This document shows, one piece after another, positions 1-63,408 of a DNA stretch of 64,000 nucleotides (the stretch's first letter is position 1; each line of letters starts with the position of its first letter). The translations under genes were made by a program, and so were the position numbers. Under the pieces are notes generated by a model. The model worked only from the letters and a program-made list of their open reading frames with translations. It was not told the DNA's origin and searched no databases. The DNA comes from Salinivirgaceae bacterium (lineage in GTDB: Bacteria > Bacteroidota > Bacteroidia > Bacteroidales > SZUA-534): contig JAKSOL010000004.1 of assembly GCA_024405635.1 (NCBI GenBank), forward strand, positions 64,001-128,000, written 5' to 3'.

Positions 1-420
1 CTTATCAAGCACATGGAAGATTTCCTTCTGGAGTTAGGTAAAGGATTTGCTTTTATTGGTCGCCAGTATCGGTTGACCATAGACAATGACGACTATTATG
101 CCGACCTTGTATTTTATCATGTCATACTTAAATGCTATGTGATCATTGATTTAAAACGTGGTAAAGTAAAGCATGAGGATATTGGGCAGATGAATATGTA
201 TTTGGGTTATTTTGCGATGGACAAGAATACAGAAGGAGACAATCCTCCCATTGGCATTATCCTTGCTGCCGACAAAAACGATGTGATGGTGCAATATGCC
301 ACATACGGCATGGATGCTAATTTATTCGTCGCAAAATATCAACTCTATTTGCCAGAAATTAACGAATTAAAAAGGCTGGTTCAAGCAGAACTTGACAGAC
401 TTAACAATAAAACTGAATAA
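1..420 (+). CDS. YhcG/DUF1016 family PD-(D/E)XK nuclease-domain protein, C-terminal part (5' end outside window)
   Basis: Frame is open from base 1. FLLELGKGFAFIGRQ, ADLVFYH..KCYVIIDLK, DIGQMNMY and DNPPIGIIL are characteristic YhcG C-terminal motifs. Confidence 0.9.
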   Translation, partial: LIKHMEDFLLELGKGFAFIGRQYRLTIDNDDYYADLVFYHVILKCYVIIDLKRGKVKHEDIGQMNMYLGYFAMDKNTEGDNPPIGIILAADKNDVMVQYATYGMDANLFVAKYQLYLPEINELKRLVQAELDRLNNKTE

Positions 421-436
421 TACTTTAATAGATAAT

Positions 437-490
437 AAAACAGAAAAATAGATTTTTAAAACTAACATAGTATTAATCATAGCGTTTGCT
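437..490 (+). repeat. Intergenic ~50 bp direct repeat, copy 1
   Basis: AAAACAGAAAAATAGATTTTTAAAACTAACATAGTATTAATCATAGCGTTTGCT; the last 20 bp are identical to copy 2. Confidence 0.85.
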
Positions 491-500
491 ATTTATTCGG

Positions 501-875
501 ATGAATACGGAGAACTATAAAATACAAAATATCGATGATTATGCTGAGTTGCTTAAGCAAGTCAAGCATCGCATTGGTCTTGCCCAAAAAAGAGCCATCT
601 ATTCTGCGAATGGAGAGATGTTGCACATGTATTGGGATATAGGGAAACTCCTTCAGAATAAAATAGATGAAGCAAATTGGGGAGATAAACTGTTAGAGAG
701 ACTCTCCATTGATTTAAAAAACGAGTATCCAACAGTAAAAGGGTTTACAACACGTAACTGCCGATATATGATGCAGTTTTATCGTGAATATAATCAAGAA
801 CTTACATTTGTGAAACTGCCCGTTTCACAAATTGAAGGTTCGAATGAAAATGTGAAACCAATCATTTTAAATTAA
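501..875 (+). pseudogene. YhcG/DUF1016 N-terminal domain only (truncated gene or stand-alone N-domain)
   Basis: MLHMYWDIGK, WGDKLLERLSIDLK..PTVKGFTTRNCRYMMQFY match the DUF1016 N-domain. The ORF stops before the nuclease domain. ATG at 501 is preferred over TTG at 486. Confidence 0.75.
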
Positions 876-889
876 ATAAGTAGTTTTAC

Positions 890-939
890 AAAACAGAAAT
901 AAATTTTAAACTAAAATATTATTAATCATAGCGTTTGCT
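890..939 (+). repeat. Intergenic ~50 bp direct repeat, copy 2
   Basis: AAAACAGAAATAAATTTTAAACTAAAATATTATTAATCATAGCGTTTGCT. Confidence 0.85.
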
Positions 940-949
940 GCAATTTGAG

Positions 950-1981
950 ATGAAAGAAAAAAAAGACATAATACATATTCCTGTTGACACATCCTTTCTT
1001 GCGGAGGTGAAAAACATTGTTGAGCAAGGTCGCCAACAAGCATACGCTTCTGTAAGTCAACTGATGATTGAAACTTATTGGAAGATAGGTGAACGTATTG
1101 TGTTACAAGAACAGAAAGGTAAAGACCGTGCAGATTACGGTACGCAACTCATTGAAGTGCTTTCAGAAGAATTGACCCGAACTTACGGGAAAGGATTCAG
1201 TAAAAGAAATCTCCAGTATTTTCGTGCGTTTTATTTGAGTTTCAATGATTTAGAAATTGTGCACACGCGTGTGCACAATTTATCTTGGTCACACATACGA
1301 ACTGTTTTACGAGTGGATGACATAACAGCGGCTCGTTGGTATTTGTTAACCGCCTCCCAAGAAATGTGGAGTGTGCGAACACTTGATAGAAATATTTCTA
1401 CACAATATTATGAACGTCATTTTAAGCAACCACAAATAGTAGAAAATACCCAAGAGGTGGTTGCACCCAACAAGTTGGAACTTCTGAAAAGTCCAATTGT
1501 TGCAGAATTTTTAGGATTCAAGAAAGATGACAGTTATAGCGAATCCGATATTGAAAGTGCCATTATCTCTCATTTGCAGGAGTTCATCATGGAAATGGGA
1601 CGTGGCTTTGCATTTATGGGTCGTCAAGAGATGATAAGAACAGCAAATAACGACTATTTCATTGATTTGGTATTCTATAATGTTGTGCTGAAATGTTATG
1701 TGCTTATTGATTTGAAAATAGGAAAGATTACCCATCAGGATGTTGGTCAGATGGATATGTACGTAAGAATGTATGATGACCTGAAACGTACTGAAGGCGA
1801 TAATCCTACAATAGGAATAGTATTATGCAGTGAAACTGATGCTGATATTGCGAAATACTCTATTCTTAAGGGTAACGAGCAACTGTTTGCTTCAAAATAC
1901 AAACTTTATTTACCTACGGAGCAGGAACTTCGCAGGGAAATAGAGGCTCAAAAAGAATTGTTCAACTTACAAAATAACTGA
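950..1981 (+). CDS. Full-length YhcG/DUF1016 family PD-(D/E)XK nuclease-domain protein
   Basis: YWKIGERIV, YGKGFSKRNLQYFRAFY, LSWSHIR, WSVRTLDRNI, GRGFAFMGRQ, IDLVFYN, DVGQMDMY, DNPTIGIVLC, LFASKYKLYLP. ATG at 950. Confidence 0.93.
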   Translation: MKEKKDIIHIPVDTSFLAEVKNIVEQGRQQAYASVSQLMIETYWKIGERIVLQEQKGKDRADYGTQLIEVLSEELTRTYGKGFSKRNLQYFRAFYLSFNDLEIVHTRVHNLSWSHIRTVLRVDDITAARWYLLTASQEMWSVRTLDRNISTQYYERHFKQPQIVENTQEVVAPNKLELLKSPIVAEFLGFKKDDSYSESDIESAIISHLQEFIMEMGRGFAFMGRQEMIRTANNDYFIDLVFYNVVLKCYVLIDLKIGKITHQDVGQMDMYVRMYDDLKRTEGDNPTIGIVLCSETDADIAKYSILKGNEQLFASKYKLYLPTEQELRREIEAQKELFNLQNN

Positions 1982-1983
1982 AA

Positions 1984-2031
1984 AAAACAAAAATAATTTT
2001 AGACTAACATATTAATTAACAAGCGTTTGCT
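1984..2031 (+). repeat. Intergenic ~50 bp direct repeat, copy 3 (more diverged)
   Basis: AAAACAAAAATAATTTTAGACTAACATATTAATTAACAAGCGTTTGCT. Confidence 0.75.
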
Positions 2032-2054
2032 TATTATTCTAAAACGTCCTTAAA

Positions 2055-2256: not shown

Positions 2257-3294
2257 ATGACTAGCGCTGACATTATTGGCGTTGTAGATATTAGTGAAGA
2301 TGAAATCAAAAATTGGATTCCAGATTTATTAAATGTTCTACTGCGCGATCATTCTGCAAAACATGATGCTAAAATCGGGTCAAGCAATCCAGATGAACAT
2401 CATATCATTTGGGCGACTGATAGTTACGAGACTCTCGGTAATTGCTACAACAAACGTGCTCAAATTAGAGCTGAACTTATAACTGGCAAAAACGGACGAG
2501 TAATCCGCCCGCGTGCTGTAAAAACAAAAGTTGAGCAGCAAACTCGTACACGCAACAAAGCCGAGGTTTTTACGCCATCATGGGTTTGTAATGCCCAAAA
2601 CAATTTAATTGATAACGAATGGTTTGGTCGCATTGGAGTTTTCAATACGGAAAATAACGACAAAACCTGGACCACTAATCCGGAAAAAATAACCTTTCCA
2701 GAGGGTAAAACATGGATTGACTATGTAAAAGATTGCCGCCTTGAGATAACATGTGGCGAAGCTCCTTACTTAGTTAGTCGATATGATACCGTAACGGGCG
2801 AATATATTCCAGTTGAGAAACGAATAGGCCTACTTGACCGTAAGTTGCGAGTGGTGAACGAAAACACCTCTACGCCCGACGAATGGGTACCTTATGCTCA
2901 TTTGGCACTAGCATCTGTTTATGGCTACGAGTGGCAAGGCGATAGTTTGCTATTGGCCCGGGAGGCTGCGCTATGCACATTCATGGACCATTTTTGGCAA
3001 AAATTCCCCAACGAAAATCTATTTGACAAAACCATTATCAAGTCAGCTTATATCATAAGCTGGAACTTGTGGCAAATGGATGGCCTAAAAGGAAAAATCC
3101 CTTATTCTGAAAAAGTAGTTATTAACACAGACCTTTATGGTTCAGAAGAAAAAACCATAGAAGAAGGAGTTTACTGCGAGATTCTCTCATGGAAGTTAGA
3201 GCCTAATAAAAAAGGCATACTCAATTTAAGAAAGGACAAAAAAAGTCAATTTTTCTCTACAAGTCTTTGTCTCTCAAAAAAATACAAAAAATAA
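2257..3294 (+). CDS. Restriction-modification methyltransferase subunit, N-terminal (SAM-binding) half only
   Basis: KAEVFTPSWV (motif X), LEITCGEAPYL (motif I) and YGYEWQGDSLLLAR (motif II) are present. No NPPY/DPPY catalytic motif. Lies directly upstream of the R-M fusion gene. Confidence 0.75.
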   Translation: MTSADIIGVVDISEDEIKNWIPDLLNVLLRDHSAKHDAKIGSSNPDEHHIIWATDSYETLGNCYNKRAQIRAELITGKNGRVIRPRAVKTKVEQQTRTRNKAEVFTPSWVCNAQNNLIDNEWFGRIGVFNTENNDKTWTTNPEKITFPEGKTWIDYVKDCRLEITCGEAPYLVSRYDTVTGEYIPVEKRIGLLDRKLRVVNENTSTPDEWVPYAHLALASVYGYEWQGDSLLLAREAALCTFMDHFWQKFPNENLFDKTIIKSAYIISWNLWQMDGLKGKIPYSEKVVINTDLYGSEEKTIEEGVYCEILSWKLEPNKKGILNLRKDKKSQFFSTSLCLSKKYKK

Positions 3295-3316: not shown

Positions 3317-6300
3317 ATGGCAAGTATTGAATTTGAAAATGTTAGTAGTTGGCATATCATTTATTTATACACAATAGATGATGAGCAACATAAAGATCTT
3401 GTTAAGGTTGGAAAAACAAGTACCAACGAACTAGACCCAACCGATGACGACATAAAAAATGCAGCAATTGTCTGTATTCGGGGTCAGTTGAGCCGAGCAG
3501 GCATGTCATACAAAGATTTTTATGCAGAAAAGGCAATTTGTAGAGACAAAGATGGTAGTATAATAAACTTTTGGGACTACGATGTTCATGATGTTCTTGA
3601 ACGCTCAGGAATAAAAAACAAAAAGTTCAAAGGAAGTTCAGGCCGAGAGTGGTACGAGTGTTCAATGGAAACTGCCAAGGCCGCAATTAAAGCAGTAAAA
3701 GAAGGCAGACAATCGTTAAATGACAACGAAATCCGTGCTGACGTTAAACCAATTGTGTTTCGCGAGGAACAGCGTCGAGCAATTGATCAAACAAAGAAGG
3801 CTTTCGTAAATCACCAAGAAATGCTTTGGAACGCAAAAATGCGGTTCGGAAAAACTGTGTCAGCCTTGCAAGTGGTAAAAGAAATGAAATTCAACCGCAC
3901 ACTTATTGTTACTCATCGTCCTGTGGTTATTGATGGCTGGTTTAAGGACTTTGGTTGGATTTTTCACGACTGCACAAATTTTCAGTTCGGTTCAAAAAAA
4001 GATTATGGCTCTGACTACAATAAATGCGAAAGCGATTTGAAGAAAAAAGGAATCAATTATGTTTTTTTCGCATCAATACAAGACTTGCGCGGTTCGGATA
4101 AAGTTGGTGGTAATTATGAAAAAAATACCGAATTGTTCAGCACCAAATGGGATTTGCTAATAGTTGATGAAGCTCACGAAGGAACTTTAACCGCATTGGG
4201 TGATAATGTGTTGAGCGAATTGATAAAAACTAAAACCAAAGTGCTGAAACTCAGCGGTACTCCATATAATCTTATTGACAAATTCGACAAAGAGGCAACA
4301 TTTACGTGGGATTATGTGATGGAGCAACGCGCTAAAGTAAATTGGGAAAACGAACATCATGGAGAACCCAACCCTTACGCGTGTTTGCCTTCAATGTGTA
4401 TTTACACTTACGACTTGCCTGCGCTTATGAATCCTTCAATTGAAGCAGATAGCATGTCGTTTAATTTTCGCGAATTTTTCAAAACCGATGGAGACTTTGA
4501 CGATAAGTTTGTTCATGAGGATTCGGTAAAAGCCTTTCTTGATTTGTTGGTTGAAAATGATGCAAATAGTACTTATCCTTTTTGCACTGACCGCTTCATA
4601 AATACTTTCCGCCATACGCTTTGGATGCTGCCAGGTGTTAAAGCCGCTAAGGCAATGAGTAAGTTGTTAAAGAGTCATAAAACATTTAACCAATACGAGA
4701 TTTTAAACGTGGCTGGTAACGGTGACGAAGACGAAGAAAATGAAGAAGCATTGCAAAAGGTAAAAAATGCTATAGGCAACAATCCTCTTACATCAAAAAC
4801 CATCACTTTGTCATGTGGCCGTTTAACAACTGGTGTAAGTGTTCCTGCGTGGACAGGTGTCCTTATGCTTGCAGGTACAGCAACCACTTCGGCAAGCGGT
4901 TATATGCAAACTATTTTCCGAGTGCAAACACCTTGCAACCTTGGCGGAATGCAAAAAGAACAATGCTTTGTGTTTGACTTTGCGCCCGACCGTACACTAC
5001 AAGTACTTGCTGACGTAGCTCATATTGAAAGTGTAGGTAAAGGAACTACCGAGAGTCAACGCCAAACTTTAACCCAATTCCTAAACTTTTGCCCTGTTAT
5101 TTCGCTTAACGGATCTACTATGCAAGAGTACAATGTTGACTCCTTGTTTACCAAACTTAAACGTGTATTCATAGAACGCGTTGTTCAAAGCGGATTTGAG
5201 GACGAACACATTTTCAACCAAAAATCGTTGCAAGGATTAAGCGGCTCCGAACTTAAAATGTTTGATAAACTACATTCAATTATCGGCTCAACCAAGGCAA
5301 TGCCAAAAACCAAAAACATTGACATTAATAAAAAGGGATTAACAGAAGAAGAACAAGAACTTGTTAGTGAAATAGAAAATAAAAAACGTGGCGGGAAAAA
5401 ACTTACTAAAGAAGAACAAGAACTACTTGAACGCCATAAAGCCGAACTTGAACAGATGCATGCGGCTGCAAGCATTTTGCGAGGAATTGCAATACGAATG
5501 CCGTTAATGATTTTTGGTGCTAATGTGAAAGAAGGAGAAGAAGAAAAGGAATTTACCATTGATAATTTTGACAATTTGGTTGACGATGAATCGTGGAAAG
5601 AGTTTATGCCAAAAGACGTAAGTAAAAAGCTATTCCGCGATTTTAAAAAATACTTTGACAAAGACATTTTTACAGCAGCCAGCCGCCGCATTCGTGAATT
5701 AACAAAGGAGGCCGACTCTATGAGCATTGAAGAACGTATGGAACAAATCCATACAATCTTTAACTATTTCCGTAATCCAGATAAAGAAACAGTTCTTACT
5801 CCGCCACGAGTGGTAAATATGCACATGAGCAATACTTTGGGTGGATATTGTTTCTACGACGAAGATTTTGAAGAAATGCTTACGAAGGACCCTTGTTTTG
5901 TTAACCACAGCGAAGTAACAAAACAAGTTTTTTCAGCTCAAAGCCAAATTCTAGAAATAAACTCAAAAAGCGGACTATATCCGCTATATGCCGCATACTC
6001 AATATATAGGAGCCGTTGCTCAATAGCTCGCGAGAAAAACCAAAAACTTACACTCGCTCAGCAACAAACAATTTGGGACACTGTGCTTGCCGAAAACATT
6101 TTTGTGTTGTGCAAAATACCAATGGCAGAGTTCATTACAAAACGTACACTTGGCGGATTTCGCAAAGTGGCATTCAATGTGGCTTATTATAAAAATTTGC
6201 TCGTTGAGATTAAAAATTCACCCGATAAATTGATTAAAGCCCTTTCTAACTCAAAAACTTACAAATCAGCTAAAAACAATTCTAATATGATATTTGATGC

Positions 6301-7324
6301 AATTATAGGAAACCCTCCATATCAAGAAAACGATGGTAGTGGCGCTGCTGGTGATGCCGCTATGCCGATATATAACAAATTTGTTGACTTAGCTCTATTG
6401 TTAAAACCTACATATATTACAATCATTATGCCGTCAAAGTGGATGATTGGTGGTAGAGGTTTGGATAAATTCCGAACAAGTATGGTTGAGGACCATCATT
6501 TAGCTAAGTTTTTTGACTATGAAGACGACTCCTACATTTTCCCTAATACACACATAGATGGCGGTATTTGTTATTTCTTATGGGATAAAAAGCATAATGA
6601 CAAAATGCAATATTCATATCGTACTAAAGATGGTGATGTTATTAATACTGTCAGATTCTTGAACAATGACACTTCATCTTTTATCATTCGTGATTTTAGG
6701 CGTCAATCAATTATTGAGAAAGTCACTAAAAGAGCGTCTTTTAAAGAAATTGTATCATCATCGCGTCCATTCGGAATTAGAAAAGATCTGTTTAATTCTC
6801 CAGAACGCTATCCTGATTCTAGACTTTCAGAAAAAATGTTTGAAAACGCAATTCAAATTCATGGAGTAAAAGGAGTAAAGGGCGGAGCTAGAAGACAATT
6901 AGGTTTTATTAATTCAAGTGTAATAACACAAAATGTACAATGGATACCTCTTTATAAATTGTTCTTTACGACCACTTATTCTACAGGTGCTATTAATTTT
7001 CCTGAAATCATAGTTGCAGATTCGAATGTTGTATGTACAGAGACCTTTTTGGTTATAGGTCCATTTAATACGAAACTCGAACAGCAAAATTGTTTGAAGT
7101 ATACCAAAACTAGTTTCTTCAAAACACTATTGTTTTTTGGTAAGGGATCAATGCAAGTAACACAAGAAGTTTTTTGTTATGTTCCTCTCCAAGATTTTAC
7201 CTCAAATAGTGATATTGATTGGAGTCTAAGTGTTGAGGAAATTGACAATCAACTATATAAAAAGTACAACCTTACAAATGATGAAATTGCGTTTATAGAT
7301 GTTTTGATAAATCCAAAGGAGTAA
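3317..7324 (+). CDS. Fused restriction-modification enzyme: GIY-YIG/T5orf172-like nuclease + SF2 (DEAH) helicase + Eco57I-type N6-adenine MTase + target-recognition domain
   Basis: VKVGKT..EWYECS at the N-terminus. NAKMRFGKT (Walker A), IVDEAH, LSGTP and YMQTIFRVQTP helicase motifs. TVLTPPRVV, LEINSKSG and IIGNPPYQ MTase motifs. C-terminal VPLQDF..IDWS..LYKKYNL tail. Confidence 0.85.
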   Translation: MASIEFENVSSWHIIYLYTIDDEQHKDLVKVGKTSTNELDPTDDDIKNAAIVCIRGQLSRAGMSYKDFYAEKAICRDKDGSIINFWDYDVHDVLERSGIKNKKFKGSSGREWYECSMETAKAAIKAVKEGRQSLNDNEIRADVKPIVFREEQRRAIDQTKKAFVNHQEMLWNAKMRFGKTVSALQVVKEMKFNRTLIVTHRPVVIDGWFKDFGWIFHDCTNFQFGSKKDYGSDYNKCESDLKKKGINYVFFASIQDLRGSDKVGGNYEKNTELFSTKWDLLIVDEAHEGTLTALGDNVLSELIKTKTKVLKLSGTPYNLIDKFDKEATFTWDYVMEQRAKVNWENEHHGEPNPYACLPSMCIYTYDLPALMNPSIEADSMSFNFREFFKTDGDFDDKFVHEDSVKAFLDLLVENDANSTYPFCTDRFINTFRHTLWMLPGVKAAKAMSKLLKSHKTFNQYEILNVAGNGDEDEENEEALQKVKNAIGNNPLTSKTITLSCGRLTTGVSVPAWTGVLMLAGTATTSASGYMQTIFRVQTPCNLGGMQKEQCFVFDFAPDRTLQVLADVAHIESVGKGTTESQRQTLTQFLNFCPVISLNGSTMQEYNVDSLFTKLKRVFIERVVQSGFEDEHIFNQKSLQGLSGSELKMFDKLHSIIGSTKAMPKTKNIDINKKGLTEEEQELVSEIENKKRGGKKLTKEEQELLERHKAELEQMHAAASILRGIAIRMPLMIFGANVKEGEEEKEFTIDNFDNLVDDESWKEFMPKDVSKKLFRDFKKYFDKDIFTAASRRIRELTKEADSMSIEERMEQIHTIFNYFRNPDKETVLTPPRVVNMHMSNTLGGYCFYDEDFEEMLTKDPCFVNHSEVTKQVFSAQSQILEINSKSGLYPLYAAYSIYRSRCSIAREKNQKLTLAQQQTIWDTVLAENIFVLCKIPMAEFITKRTLGGFRKVAFNVAYYKNLLVEIKNSPDKLIKALSNSKTYKSAKNNSNMIFDAIIGNPPYQENDGSGAAGDAAMPIYNKFVDLALLLKPTYITIIMPSKWMIGGRGLDKFRTSMVEDHHLAKFFDYEDDSYIFPNTHIDGGICYFLWDKKHNDKMQYSYRTKDGDVINTVRFLNNDTSSFIIRDFRRQSIIEKVTKRASFKEIVSSSRPFGIRKDLFNSPERYPDSRLSEKMFENAIQIHGVKGVKGGARRQLGFINSSVITQNVQWIPLYKLFFTTTYSTGAINFPEIIVADSNVVCTETFLVIGPFNTKLEQQNCLKYTKTSFFKTLLFFGKGSMQVTQEVFCYVPLQDFTSNSDIDWSLSVEEIDNQLYKKYNLTNDEIAFIDVLINPKE

Positions 7325-7346: not shown

Positions 7347-7377
7347 AAAAGCCTCCGTCACCAACGGAGGCTTTTTT
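7347..7377 (+). terminator. Intrinsic terminator after the R-M operon (possibly bidirectional)
   Basis: AAAAGCCTCCGT-cacca-ACGGAGGCTTTT followed by a T-run. Confidence 0.85.
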
Positions 7378-50054: not shown

Positions 50055-51169
50055 AAATATTAGTATTTACACATAAAAGTAGTTTTTTTGGCGCTTCAAA
50101 ATCTATTTTTGAAATAACCAATGTGCTATGTAGTGAGCATGAAATAACTTATGTCATTCCCAACCATGGGAAAATGGAAGTGGAATTACAAAATGCTCAC
50201 TATAAATACCTTATACTTCCTAATCCTATTTGGACAATCACACCTAAACCTAAAAAATATAGTAATTGGAACTATTCTAAGCACTATATCAAGACGAAAC
50301 TTACATTTCTCATTTCATTTTTATATGCATATAAACAAAGCATCAACACCGTAAGACGATTGAATCCGGACATTATAATTACAAATACAAGCGTAGCTCC
50401 AATGGGGTTAATTGTAGCAAAACACTTGGGAATACAATCCATACTATGGATACGTGAACCATTATGTAATAAGACAGGCTGGCAAATTCCTACAATTTTT
50501 ACAATAAGGCAAGTCGCAAACGTGATTAGCAAGGCTAACATTGTTATTGCCCCTTCAAAATACTTAAAGGATTATTATGAAAATACATTTAAATTAAGCA
50601 ATGTTTACGTCTTGCCTAACATCATTAATTTTTTTCCCAAAAAAATTAATGAACCTCCAAAATATACATTTGGCATGGTGGGGTCGATAACGGAACGTAA
50701 AGGTCAATACGAATTTGCAAAAGCAATGTTAGAGAATACTACCAAAACATCATTAATCATTTGGGGAGAAGAGGGAACTGAATATTCACGGAAAGTTGTC
50801 AATCTAGCAAAAATGAGTAATGGGAGAATTATAATGGGAGGCTATGAAACAAATTTAGATAGGATATACTCGTCATTTCATATTTATGTAAATATGGGAA
50901 TCAACGAGACTTTTGGTAGGACCACCATTGAGGCTATGAGAGCTGGCCGATTGGTATTTGGTCGAAATTCTGGGGCAACACCAGAATTAATTCAACACGG
51001 AATAACAGGCTTTTTATTTAATACGCCGGAAACAATTTTTAATATACTTGGTGACATGGAGTCTTTTTTTGAAAACGATAAATACAATGACATAAAGGTA
51101 AATGCTCTAAAATTTTCTATGAACTATTTGCCGCAGACTATCAAGGAAAATGTGTCATCTTTATTTTAA
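50051..51169 (+). CDS. Glycosyltransferase family 4
   Basis: FGASKS, GMVGSITERKGQ, ETFGRTTIEAM..G, GATPELI. Confidence 0.88.
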   Translation: MKILVFTHKSSFFGASKSIFEITNVLCSEHEITYVIPNHGKMEVELQNAHYKYLILPNPIWTITPKPKKYSNWNYSKHYIKTKLTFLISFLYAYKQSINTVRRLNPDIIITNTSVAPMGLIVAKHLGIQSILWIREPLCNKTGWQIPTIFTIRQVANVISKANIVIAPSKYLKDYYENTFKLSNVYVLPNIINFFPKKINEPPKYTFGMVGSITERKGQYEFAKAMLENTTKTSLIIWGEEGTEYSRKVVNLAKMSNGRIIMGGYETNLDRIYSSFHIYVNMGINETFGRTTIEAMRAGRLVFGRNSGATPELIQHGITGFLFNTPETIFNILGDMESFFENDKYNDIKVNALKFSMNYLPQTIKENVSSLF

Positions 51170-62724: not shown

Positions 62725-63408
62725 ATGAACGCGATTAGCCAAAAAGTTATGCCTTTTCTTATCGACCTTGGCAATAACAACAATCGCCCGTGGTTTGAAA
62801 CCAATCGCGGCCGTTACCAAGATGTGCTAGCTGAATTTACAGCATTTGTAACCGAACTCATCTCGCGCATCTCAGTTGACGATACAACTCTAGCAAACGT
62901 AAGTGCCAAAAGCTGCATTTACCGTATTTATCGCGATACGCGTTTCAGTGCCGACAAAACTCCATATAAAACGCACATGGCGGCTTCAATATCTGCAGCA
63001 GGAAAAAACCACGTCAGCCCATCGTTTTACGTTCATTTTCAACATGGAAACGAATCTATGTTTGGTGGAGGAATGTTTATAACGGATAGCAATCTACTCA
63101 AACAATTTCGCAACGAAATATGTTCTGTTCCCGAAGATTTTTACGATATAATTAACGCACCAGAGTTTCGCCGCTTTTATCCCGAAGGTTTGTGGGATTA
63201 TCAAAAATTGAAGAACGTGCCAAAAGGTTATGATATTGATGAACGCTATGCCGACTTGCTCAAATACAAACACTACCTTATAACAGGGACGTTGCCCGAT
63301 AAATCTTTGTCGGACGAGCACTTGATGGATTATTTGGTTGAAGCACATAGAGTTATACTCCCATTTAACCGATTGCTACTCGATGTAATGAACTCAAGCA
63401 ACGCGTAG
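62725..63408 (+). CDS. DUF2461 family protein
   Basis: NNNRPWF, IYRIYRDTRFSADKTPYKTH, LKNVPKGY, DLLKYK. Confidence 0.88.
   Translation: MNAISQKVMPFLIDLGNNNNRPWFETNRGRYQDVLAEFTAFVTELISRISVDDTTLANVSAKSCIYRIYRDTRFSADKTPYKTHMAASISAAGKNHVSPSFYVHFQHGNESMFGGGMFITDSNLLKQFRNEICSVPEDFYDIINAPEFRRFYPEGLWDYQKLKNVPKGYDIDERYADLLKYKHYLITGTLPDKSLSDEHLMDYLVEAHRVILPFNRLLLDVMNSSNA

Follow-up and report, generated by a model that had tools for sequence, protein, structure and literature searches.

An in-frame DNA palindrome at a fixed slot of YhcG/DUF1016 genes

REP and REPIN elements are extragenic palindromes of conserved sequence that occur in many copies, and the RAYT protein is an HUH enzyme; the attC sites of integrons are imperfect palindromes of 55–140 bp that lie between cassettes, and classical fragile palindromes are longer than 100 bp. 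In coding sequence, a 2019 report describes mitochondrial inverted repeats that are perfect, up to 284 bp long, numerous per genome and lineage-specific (PMC6649704). For proteobacteria, template switching is described as a process that homogenises short inverted repeats (Lavi et al. 2018, PMC5941160), and it has been reported in yeast coding sequence (PMC8604942) and for RNA hairpins (PMC8794818). DUF1016 proteins, which are predicted PD-(D/E)XK nucleases, are reported to be enriched 17-fold beside genes targeted by programmed inversions and to lie often inside restriction loci (PMC9881135, PMC4316617). Here we describe short palindromes within the reading frames of YhcG/DUF1016 genes, starting from a 64-kb stretch of DNA from a Salinivirgaceae bacterium (the window, to which plain position numbers refer). 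The whole genome is 2.66 Mb in length and has a G+C content of 40%; the public assemblies closest to it belong to Bacteroidales and Paludibacteraceae, and bases 1–2040 of the window form the end of a tandem DUF1016/YhcG gene array on contig C31. A literature search combining yhcG/DUF1016 with palindrome terms found no description of such a palindrome in titles or abstracts, supplements being outside its scope.

Two genes of the array lying wholly in the window, the full-length g4 and the shortened g3t (Table 1), each carry one of these palindromes. In g4, AAATTGTGCACACGCGTGTGCACAATTT at 1254–1281 is a perfect 14+14 palindrome with no spacer, and in g3t, ATTTGTGAAAC-tgccc-GTTTCACAAAT at 806–832 has arms of 11 nt and a spacer of 5 nt; both had been reported in a first-pass annotation of the window made from the sequence alone, and both were found as described there. 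Counted about base 819, the g3t hairpin forms 12 of 13 possible pairs; the exception is a T/C mismatch that lies two bases from the centre. The annotation had also placed the two at an equivalent protein position, which proved correct: each spans residues 103–111, the nine codons before the S-W of an LSWSH motif (hereafter the slot), where g4 encodes IVHTRVHNL and g3t encodes FVKLPVSQI. Their dyad centres are half a base apart, lying between codons 4 and 5 in g4 (even type) and on the first base of codon 5 in g3t (odd type). The neighbouring gene g2 has a perfect 13-1-13 palindrome in its slot (G000:C31:63685–63711), 290–316 bases before the window begins, while g1 has two weaker units 54 nt apart and a further copy on contig C7 has one unit, each with 10 of 12 pairs.

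A search of the 2.66-Mb genome for perfect hairpins with arms of at least 11 nt and loops of at most 7 nt returned 75, mostly terminator-like, three of which occupy the slot of three adjacent DUF1016 paralogs. When the search was confined to perfect hairpins (arm at least 10, loop at most 4) well inside open reading frames (ORFs) of at least 120 codons, 11 were found, two of them in DUF1016 genes with arms of 14 and 13. The sole other coding arm of 14 (window 50622–50652, TCATTAATTTTTTTCCCAAAAAAATTAATGA) is nearly pure A/T and lies in a group-1 glycosyltransferase ORF. The remaining coding hairpins, with arms of 10–11, fall in Hsp70-like, PGI, YidC, transporter and unnamed genes, and are about as numerous as chance would give (~13 in 2.66 Mb for arm at least 10 and loop at most 4, by our own arithmetic). 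Because three of the 75 genomic hairpins share one slot and the long coding arms lie in DUF1016 genes, the slot hairpins are not attributable to chance.

Dispersed copies of each palindrome, for which the first-pass annotation had proposed a search, were absent: none of the three palindromes has a further copy in the genome at up to 3 substitutions. Single 12-nt arms gave 32 to 37 genome matches each with at most one mismatch, taken as background without a shuffle control, and no orphan palindrome of at least 10/12 pairs was present within C31:58000–72000, except for a terminator at window position 7361. The predicted DNA fold has an energy of −11.1 kcal/mol (z −4.4) for the g3t palindrome and −12 kcal/mol (z −4.75) for that of g4, in which CGCG at the centre forms the loop. 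Where contigs from four public runs cover either palindrome, they list no base differences inside it. Short contig matches ending at 830 and at 1281/1282 could equally reflect mosaic boundaries or the 88% likeness cut-off, and nothing was drawn from them.

The hairpins are instances of an ancient in-frame DNA palindrome at one fixed nine-codon slot of YhcG/DUF1016 genes, before the motif L-S/T-W-S/T-H. This was established in 113 distinct DUF1016 genes from the genome itself, 30 loci of relatives and 80 loci across many phyla; these sequences are related to one another, and counts over them are not independent. The 80 loci came from a scan of one genome per species with nine full-length proteins as query and, by record title, represent Bacteroidota, several Bacillota families, Fibrobacter, Verrucomicrobiota, Lentisphaeria, Sulfurimonas, Treponema, Brocadiaceae, Nitrospiria, beta- and gammaproteobacteria, Edaphobacter, Anaerolineaceae, Eggerthellaceae and a Mycoplasma. 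Each gene was scored at its best centre in the 225 nt preceding the W codon, by the number of Watson-Crick pairs out of 12. Enrichment among homologs, which the annotation had made the touchstone of its proposal, was massive: 105/113 genes had at least 10 pairs, 85/113 at least 11 and 37/113 all 12, as compared with 1/225 equally long control windows from the same genes that reached 10. In 83 of 114 ORFs (one a duplicate), the centre of the gene's longest perfect hairpin stood at −5.8, −6.0, −5.7, −9.8, −8.8 or −16.8 codons from the W codon, six fixed positions in all. Centres fell at a codon boundary or on base 1 of a codon in 106/111 cases, with 86 palindromes of odd type and 20 of even type, the latter representing the g4 clade. 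Arm length ranged from 8 to 18 across genes, and genes with insertions retain the palindrome, followed by further units of similar peptide.

The dyad thus persists at one protein position across the 113 genes while sequence and peptide differ, as had been claimed from the two window genes. When the peptide was held fixed and codons were redrawn from each gene's own usage, the mean number of pairs was 6.25, versus 10.99 observed, and in 95/113 genes fewer than 1% of resamples matched the observed pair count. The resampled value is itself twice the random expectation of 3, because residues on the two sides of the dyad come from reverse-complementary codons; in the even type, codons k and 9−k are reverse complements, which gives the residue pairs I/N, V/H, W/P, L/Q and T/R. 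Covariation was counted as pairs on ungapped alignments and compared with 500 shuffles. For the odd type (41 distinct rows), 93.8% of cells were paired versus 66.2% after shuffling, with 140 double-changed cells versus 40.7 (0/500 shuffles as high), and sliding the partner by 1–3 columns left 31–47% paired. The even type (20 rows) gave 97.5% paired versus 78.9%, and 48 double-changed cells versus 16.8 (again 0/500). Twelve of the 13 odd-type pairs vary, 11 through changes on both sides, and 8 of the 14 even-type pairs vary on both sides, the outer, coding-constrained pairs being invariant. Close relatives of g4, at 83% identity, have compensated pairs with changed residues (IVHTRVHNL versus IVQSRLHNL). 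Symmetry and compensatory change therefore both exceed their controls in the codon-level comparison that the annotation had suggested, and the slot holds a near-perfect inverted repeat in the reading frame, with both arms coding and with compensated arm changes beyond what the peptide demands. These data support a constraint that acts on nucleic acid and not on protein. They show that what is conserved is the Watson-Crick symmetry of double-stranded DNA about the codon 4/5 dyad, with sequence and peptide drifting and the two arms changing jointly.

An RNA stem would tolerate G·U above all. The 106 mismatches in the sample comprised 21 G/T, 35 A/C and 50 of other types. In a folded strand the central bases are predicted to be the loop, yet complementarity extends to them. 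In the odd type, the pair two bases from the centre was Watson-Crick in 97%. The third base of codon 4 was A in 67/78 NCN codons and C or T in 0/78 (background for A of 0.18–0.38, by residue), and codon 5, where Leu or Val, ended in G in 60/62. In the even type, codons 4 and 5 were exact reverse complements in 12/17 haplotypes and one base off in the other 5. The central codon pairs were ACG/CGT, TCG/CGA, GCG/CGC, GAG/CTC, ACA/TGT and GCA/TGC, with matching residue swaps (T-R, S-R, A-R, E-L, T-C and A-C). Because the central bases form the loop when folded, hairpin stability cannot explain this central symmetry.

These observations bear on whether the palindrome acts as an RNA hairpin in the mRNA, through pausing, processing or an internal 3'-end barrier. 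Predicted RNA hairpins are stable (−15.6 to −18.6 kcal/mol, z −3.5 to −5.1), and orphan copies in E. coli (see below) sit 15 nt after stop codons, like 3'-end stem-loops. However, G/T mismatches are not favoured, loop positions stay complementary at the cost of residue changes, the palindromes have no following T-run, and Rfam families match neither palindrome, with no covariance-model match of Rfam 15 at 806–832 or 1254–1281, even at E ≤ 1; the three Rfam matches in bases 1–2400 lie elsewhere and are all under the gathering score. We consider an RNA role unlikely. Since G·U is not tolerated and complementarity persists at would-be loop positions, the comparisons indicate that the constraint is on DNA and that the symmetry is kept at the DNA level, not in RNA. 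The annotation had invoked selection or a process at the DNA/RNA level; the DNA half of that suggestion holds, while the RNA half fails on the lack of any favour for G·T and on pairing that reaches the centre.

Several known classes of element were also considered and rejected. An intrinsic terminator was dismissed since there is no T-run (the next bases are ATCTTGG in g4 and TGAAGG in g3t) and the palindromes lie inside open frames, and a structured RNA stem more generally since only 21 of the 106 mismatches are G/T and loop positions are kept complementary. The half-site sequence of the operator of a dimeric DNA-binding protein would be conserved, whereas here most pairs vary. An integron attC site does not fit palindromes of 25–36 bp that are near-perfect and inside a gene.

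To judge what the protein makes of this segment, residue variability was examined among 42 relatives of g4. Slot residues 2–7 had a mean entropy of 2.65 bits versus 1.41 for the whole protein, a value inflated by subfamilies with a shifted slot, and slot residues ranked 20 to 86 of 343 in variability. In an AlphaFold2 model of g4 (mean predicted local distance difference test score of 77), residues 103–111 are the end of a short helix (101–107) and the turn before helix 113–119. As the slot is more variable than the protein average, the protein seems, on this model, to tolerate what the DNA would dictate there. The same variability, together with the paired residue changes at 83% overall identity, could be taken to mean that the palindrome is kept for faster diversification of a specificity-bearing peptide, with arm copying doubling each mutation in an arms race. 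Other parts of the protein vary more than the slot, however, and the shifted-slot subfamilies inflate its entropy; we regard this possibility as very unlikely.

The annotation had also raised a self-encoded operator or identity tag, in which each paralog's protein would recognise its own palindrome via the encoded peptide. While paralogs of one genome do differ in both palindrome and peptide, the same pattern follows from arm copying alone, each site is single in the genome, and the model assigns the slot to a short helix and turn of the N-domain, itself helical. Moreover, we know of no way for a peptide to read its encoding DNA. Nothing suggests sequence-specific recognition, and we give this proposal almost no credence.

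Given these data, we regard template switching across the dyad during replication as the likeliest reason why the arms stay alike, with the peptide following, and give this idea about even odds. One arm would be copied from the other during replication (quasipalindrome correction), probably in the inter-strand form because, by our reasoning from models of the process, that form extends the copying to the centre. A change that arises in one arm would then be either reverted or passed to the other arm, and the paired amino-acid changes would be tolerated in the short helix-turn segment. By-products would include in-frame tandem duplication of units, deletions, truncated copies such as 501–875 and stray copies beside genes. 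Arm copying would give strict Watson-Crick symmetry that includes the centre, no fixed sequence, changes in pairs, arms of differing length and C/G alternation at the centre. The centre base was G in 43 and C in 36 of 88, and C/G was the commonest centre difference between near-identical arms (14/27), although tolerance of Leu/Val could yield the same. Among the options that the annotation had listed, a mutational process and a recombination hotspot give the best fit, in view of the covariation, the slot variability and the unit changes, deletions and truncations seen in E. coli.

The population test used E. coli strains, of which 10 were fetched in addition to K-12 and 8 were tabulated beside it. 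The three units in the yhcG reading frame of K-12 are spaced 39 nt apart and score 11, 10 and 11 of 12 pairs. A perfect orphan copy lies 15 nt after the yhcG stop and a second orphan (11/12) lies 15 nt after the gltD stop, 7 kb upstream of yhcG; beyond these 5, the unit pattern has no match in the K-12 chromosome. A 221-nt query across the units was matched in 3963/5426 complete E. coli genomes, with at least 80% of it covered in only 2706. Of two O157:H7 strains, one has lost 78 nt and retains a single unit while the other has three, and an independent 80-nt deletion with a frameshift was also seen. A truncation of yhcG, which recurs in many E. coli strains and was present in two of those fetched, falls exactly on the right edge of unit 3, with a gene of 101 amino acids annotated as 'transposase' (WP_000639208.1; L134 1765–2070) next to it on the downstream side. 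An IS1 insertion lies two bases after the gltD orphan, together with a deletion that ends in unit 3. The centre of the downstream orphan is G or C depending on the strain, and unit 1 is perfect in 8/9 tabulated strains, K-12 having one unpaired change. An antisense RNA at the 5' end of yhcG has been reported (PMC7967276).

A number of points weigh against template switching as the explanation. Arm copying is deduced here from aligned sequences and not from switching events seen directly. In the nine tabulated E. coli strains, units 2 and 3 stay imperfect across ~4% divergence, and correction is therefore not rapid; one uncorrected mismatch is present in ~42% of genes, and because the sampled sequences are related, the counts overstate their independence. 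Mutation bias alone leaves unexplained the confinement of long coding palindromes to DUF1016 genes in this genome, the presence of the same feature in RhuM, an unrelated family of restriction-locus passengers, and the location of all 5 K-12 copies in or bordering the yhcG locus. Finally, a prevalence of 93% across phyla looks like selection.

RhuM genes have an in-frame covarying palindrome of their own (e.g. AACTGTTCGGAAATTCCGAACAGTT, encoding TVRKFRTV). Among 20 RhuM genes that passed a motif and length filter in 30 loci (L144–L172 among them), the best palindrome was at −18.3 or −15.3 codons from YNLD in 17, and 17/20 had at least 10/12 pairs. In the genome studied here, a RhuM gene (G000:C35:84465–85229) has 10/12 pairs and a Bro-N gene (G000:C31:47847–48140) has 11/12, encoding VVSATNQL. 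RhuM-type palindromes recur in the flanks of DUF1016 genes, where 36 palindromes of at least 11/12 were counted in 254 kb versus 74 in the 2.66-Mb genome.

The position-fixed palindromes of RhuM genes, the scores of the RhuM and Bro-N genes of this genome and the palindrome-dense flanks, like the wide prevalence, the placement of the five K-12 matches and the clustering of rearrangement ends at E. coli units, speak for a selected DNA structure or site: a cruciform or single-strand hairpin recognised by its structure, whether by the YhcG nuclease or by the host's recombination or replication proteins, or a site of exchange or rearrangement for these passenger genes within restriction and defence loci. 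Conversely, the sequence is not conserved and arm length is variable, no fold makes use of the complementary bases at the dyad centre, none of the palindromes recurs elsewhere in the genome and no orphan lies within 6 kb of the array, and breakpoint clustering is expected of any palindrome. Because mutation bias alone does not predict the DUF1016 confinement, the RhuM feature or the places of the E. coli orphans, we keep a selected site as a possible, if doubtful, explanation. Somewhat more tentatively, the element could be a new in-frame cis element, a cruciform or hairpin that YhcG/DUF1016, RhuM and Bro-N, unrelated passengers of restriction and defence loci, have in common and that is read by its structure, for example by YhcG, that drives gene exchange, duplication and truncation.

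The truncated gene g3t has a repeat of the left palindrome arm near its end, with TGTGAAAC present at both 810–817 and 851–858; bases 847–859 are possibly the left half of a second, broken unit. The best relative of g3t (55% identity) aligns only to residue 111, the last palindrome codon, while fainter likeness to other relatives, which carry two or three units there, runs ~10 codons further. The g3t frame continues for 14 codons past the hairpin, into a conserved intergenic element. These relatives and the end of the frame place the breakpoint within ~50 nt downstream of the palindrome and not demonstrably inside it. The annotation had put it next to the half-site: the repeat is there, but the breakpoint cannot be placed at it, since likeness fades over ~10 codons.

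Table 1 Features of the DUF1016 array, its palindromes and its intergenic element, with the orphan copies of E. coli K-12
Feature	Position	Strand	Support or remark
g1, DUF1016 paralog	G000:C31:62192–63316		
g2, DUF1016 paralog	G000:C31:63392–64420 (3' part = window 1–420)	+	YhcG_C match, E 1.6e-49, 168.2 bits
g3t, shortened DUF1016 gene, 124 amino acids	501–875	+	N-terminal domain only; DUF1016_N, E 5.6e-23, profile positions 1–92/137
g4, full-length DUF1016/YhcG gene, 343 amino acids	950–1981	+	DUF1016_N, E 7e-45; YhcG_C, E 9.8e-54
Fifth DUF1016 copy, full-length	contig C7		
Slot palindrome of g3t, 11-5-11	806–832	none	encodes FVKLPVSQI
Left-arm repeat of g3t, TGTGAAAC at 851–858	847–859	+	weak evidence
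Slot palindrome of g4, perfect 14+14	1254–1281	none	encodes (E)IVHTRVHNL
Conserved ~50-nt element	446–502	+	core 460–490
Conserved ~50-nt element, second window copy	895–949	+	core 909–939
Conserved ~50-nt element, third window copy	1997–2039	+	after last array gene
K-12 orphan copies after gltD and yhcG stops	L131 8633–8657 and 16971–16995		

Assignment of these genes rests on Pfam matches well above the curated cut-offs. For DUF1016_N (PF17761, cut-off 32.8), g4 scored 152.9 bits and g3t 82; for the PD-(D/E)XK domain YhcG_C (PF06250, cut-off 32.5), g4 scored 181.9 bits, with the match in the 3' part of g2 given in Table 1. The YhcG_C domain was not found by Pfam in g3t, which is truncated. 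The array paralogs are 30–48% identical to one another in protein sequence. A search of solved structures by sequence found no related one, the single match (E 0.81) being spurious. On the 3' side of the array is an ORF of 345 amino acids without a Pfam match (window 2257–3294), and a fusion of T5orf172, ResIII helicase and Eco57I/N6-methylase domains, 1335 amino acids long, adjoins the array at window 3317–7324 (+); judged by its domains, it is likely to be a single-chain restriction-modification enzyme. A sub-threshold match to the DUF3800-I RNA of Rfam (2085–2196, +; 34.9 bits, gathering score 44.2, E 0.0057) sits just upstream of the 345-amino-acid ORF, and inverted repeats of 18 nt (2141–2158/2192–2209) and 13 nt (2215–2227/2240–2252) lie near it.

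The intergenic element into which g3t runs precedes each of the four DUF1016 genes of the array and follows the last one, although the genes themselves are only 30–48% identical. Its core, AACTAACATATTATTAATCATAGCGTTTGCT, has one or more changes per copy, and two copies lie upstream of the window (G000:C31:62120–62195 and 63318–63395). Elsewhere in the genome, copies at C23:141527–141574 and C1:236922–236968 lie before a gene for a Dam-like methylase and before a pair of putative restriction-modification genes. At up to 3 mismatches the element was present in 6/41 related genomes, and at least 4 of those copies are, by their coordinates, directly beside DUF1016 genes. It could serve as a promoter common to these genes, or mark the edge of a cassette. 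In gut metagenomes, contigs from one DNA run and one RNA-library run join 453 to 1997 through the repeated element, with loss of g3t and g4; the DNA run with this joint contains the full form as well. Two further joints, 488 to 906 (g3t lost) and 258 to 1925 (a g2/g4 chimera), are each represented by a single contig, and many contigs match only the ~40-nt element, with unrelated flanks.

From E. coli K-12 to gut Bacteroidales and across many further phyla, then, this is a family in which the amino acids of the slot are set by DNA symmetry, offering a clean natural case in which a DNA-level process or constraint overrides protein-level conservation over long times. The yhcG gene of E. coli K-12, with its three units and two orphans, is a tractable model for the concerted evolution of arms, and the slot palindrome marks a rearrangement hotspot in defence loci. 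There is also a caution for annotation, in that motifs conserved in Pfam, here the stretch before LSWSH, can mirror nucleotide symmetry instead of protein function. Should the palindrome turn out to be used by the cell, it would represent an in-frame cis element of a new class, linked to the passenger genes of restriction loci.

Taken against the described systems, the slot palindrome has partial counterparts. A REP/RAYT-type repeat was rejected, as there are no dispersed copies at up to 3 substitutions and those of E. coli K-12 number only 5, all local. The likeness to REP/REPIN elements and RAYT lies in short palindromes tied to one gene, with copies beside it; unlike them, the DUF1016 palindrome is in frame and unique per gene, and the gene encodes a PD-(D/E)XK-type protein. 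As with fragile-site palindromes, deletions, truncations and insertion-sequence junctions cluster at the E. coli yhcG units, but the DUF1016 palindromes are 25–36 bp in length and persist over long evolutionary times. Like the mitochondrial repeats, as these are described (PMC6649704), they are perfect inverted repeats in coding sequence with both arms coding for conserved protein, so that symmetry and protein function are maintained jointly, whereas DUF1016 genes have one palindrome of 25–36 bp, at one homologous position, in many phyla and with variable sequence. The closest parallel to the proposed mechanism is quasipalindrome correction (PMC5941160, PMC8604942, PMC8794818), with which the slot shares complementary arms, paired changes, arms that can lengthen and possibly an invertible centre. 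As described in those reports, that process is general and mostly non-coding or sporadic, whereas the DUF1016 palindrome, whose peptide follows the DNA, is family-wide, fixed in position and coding.

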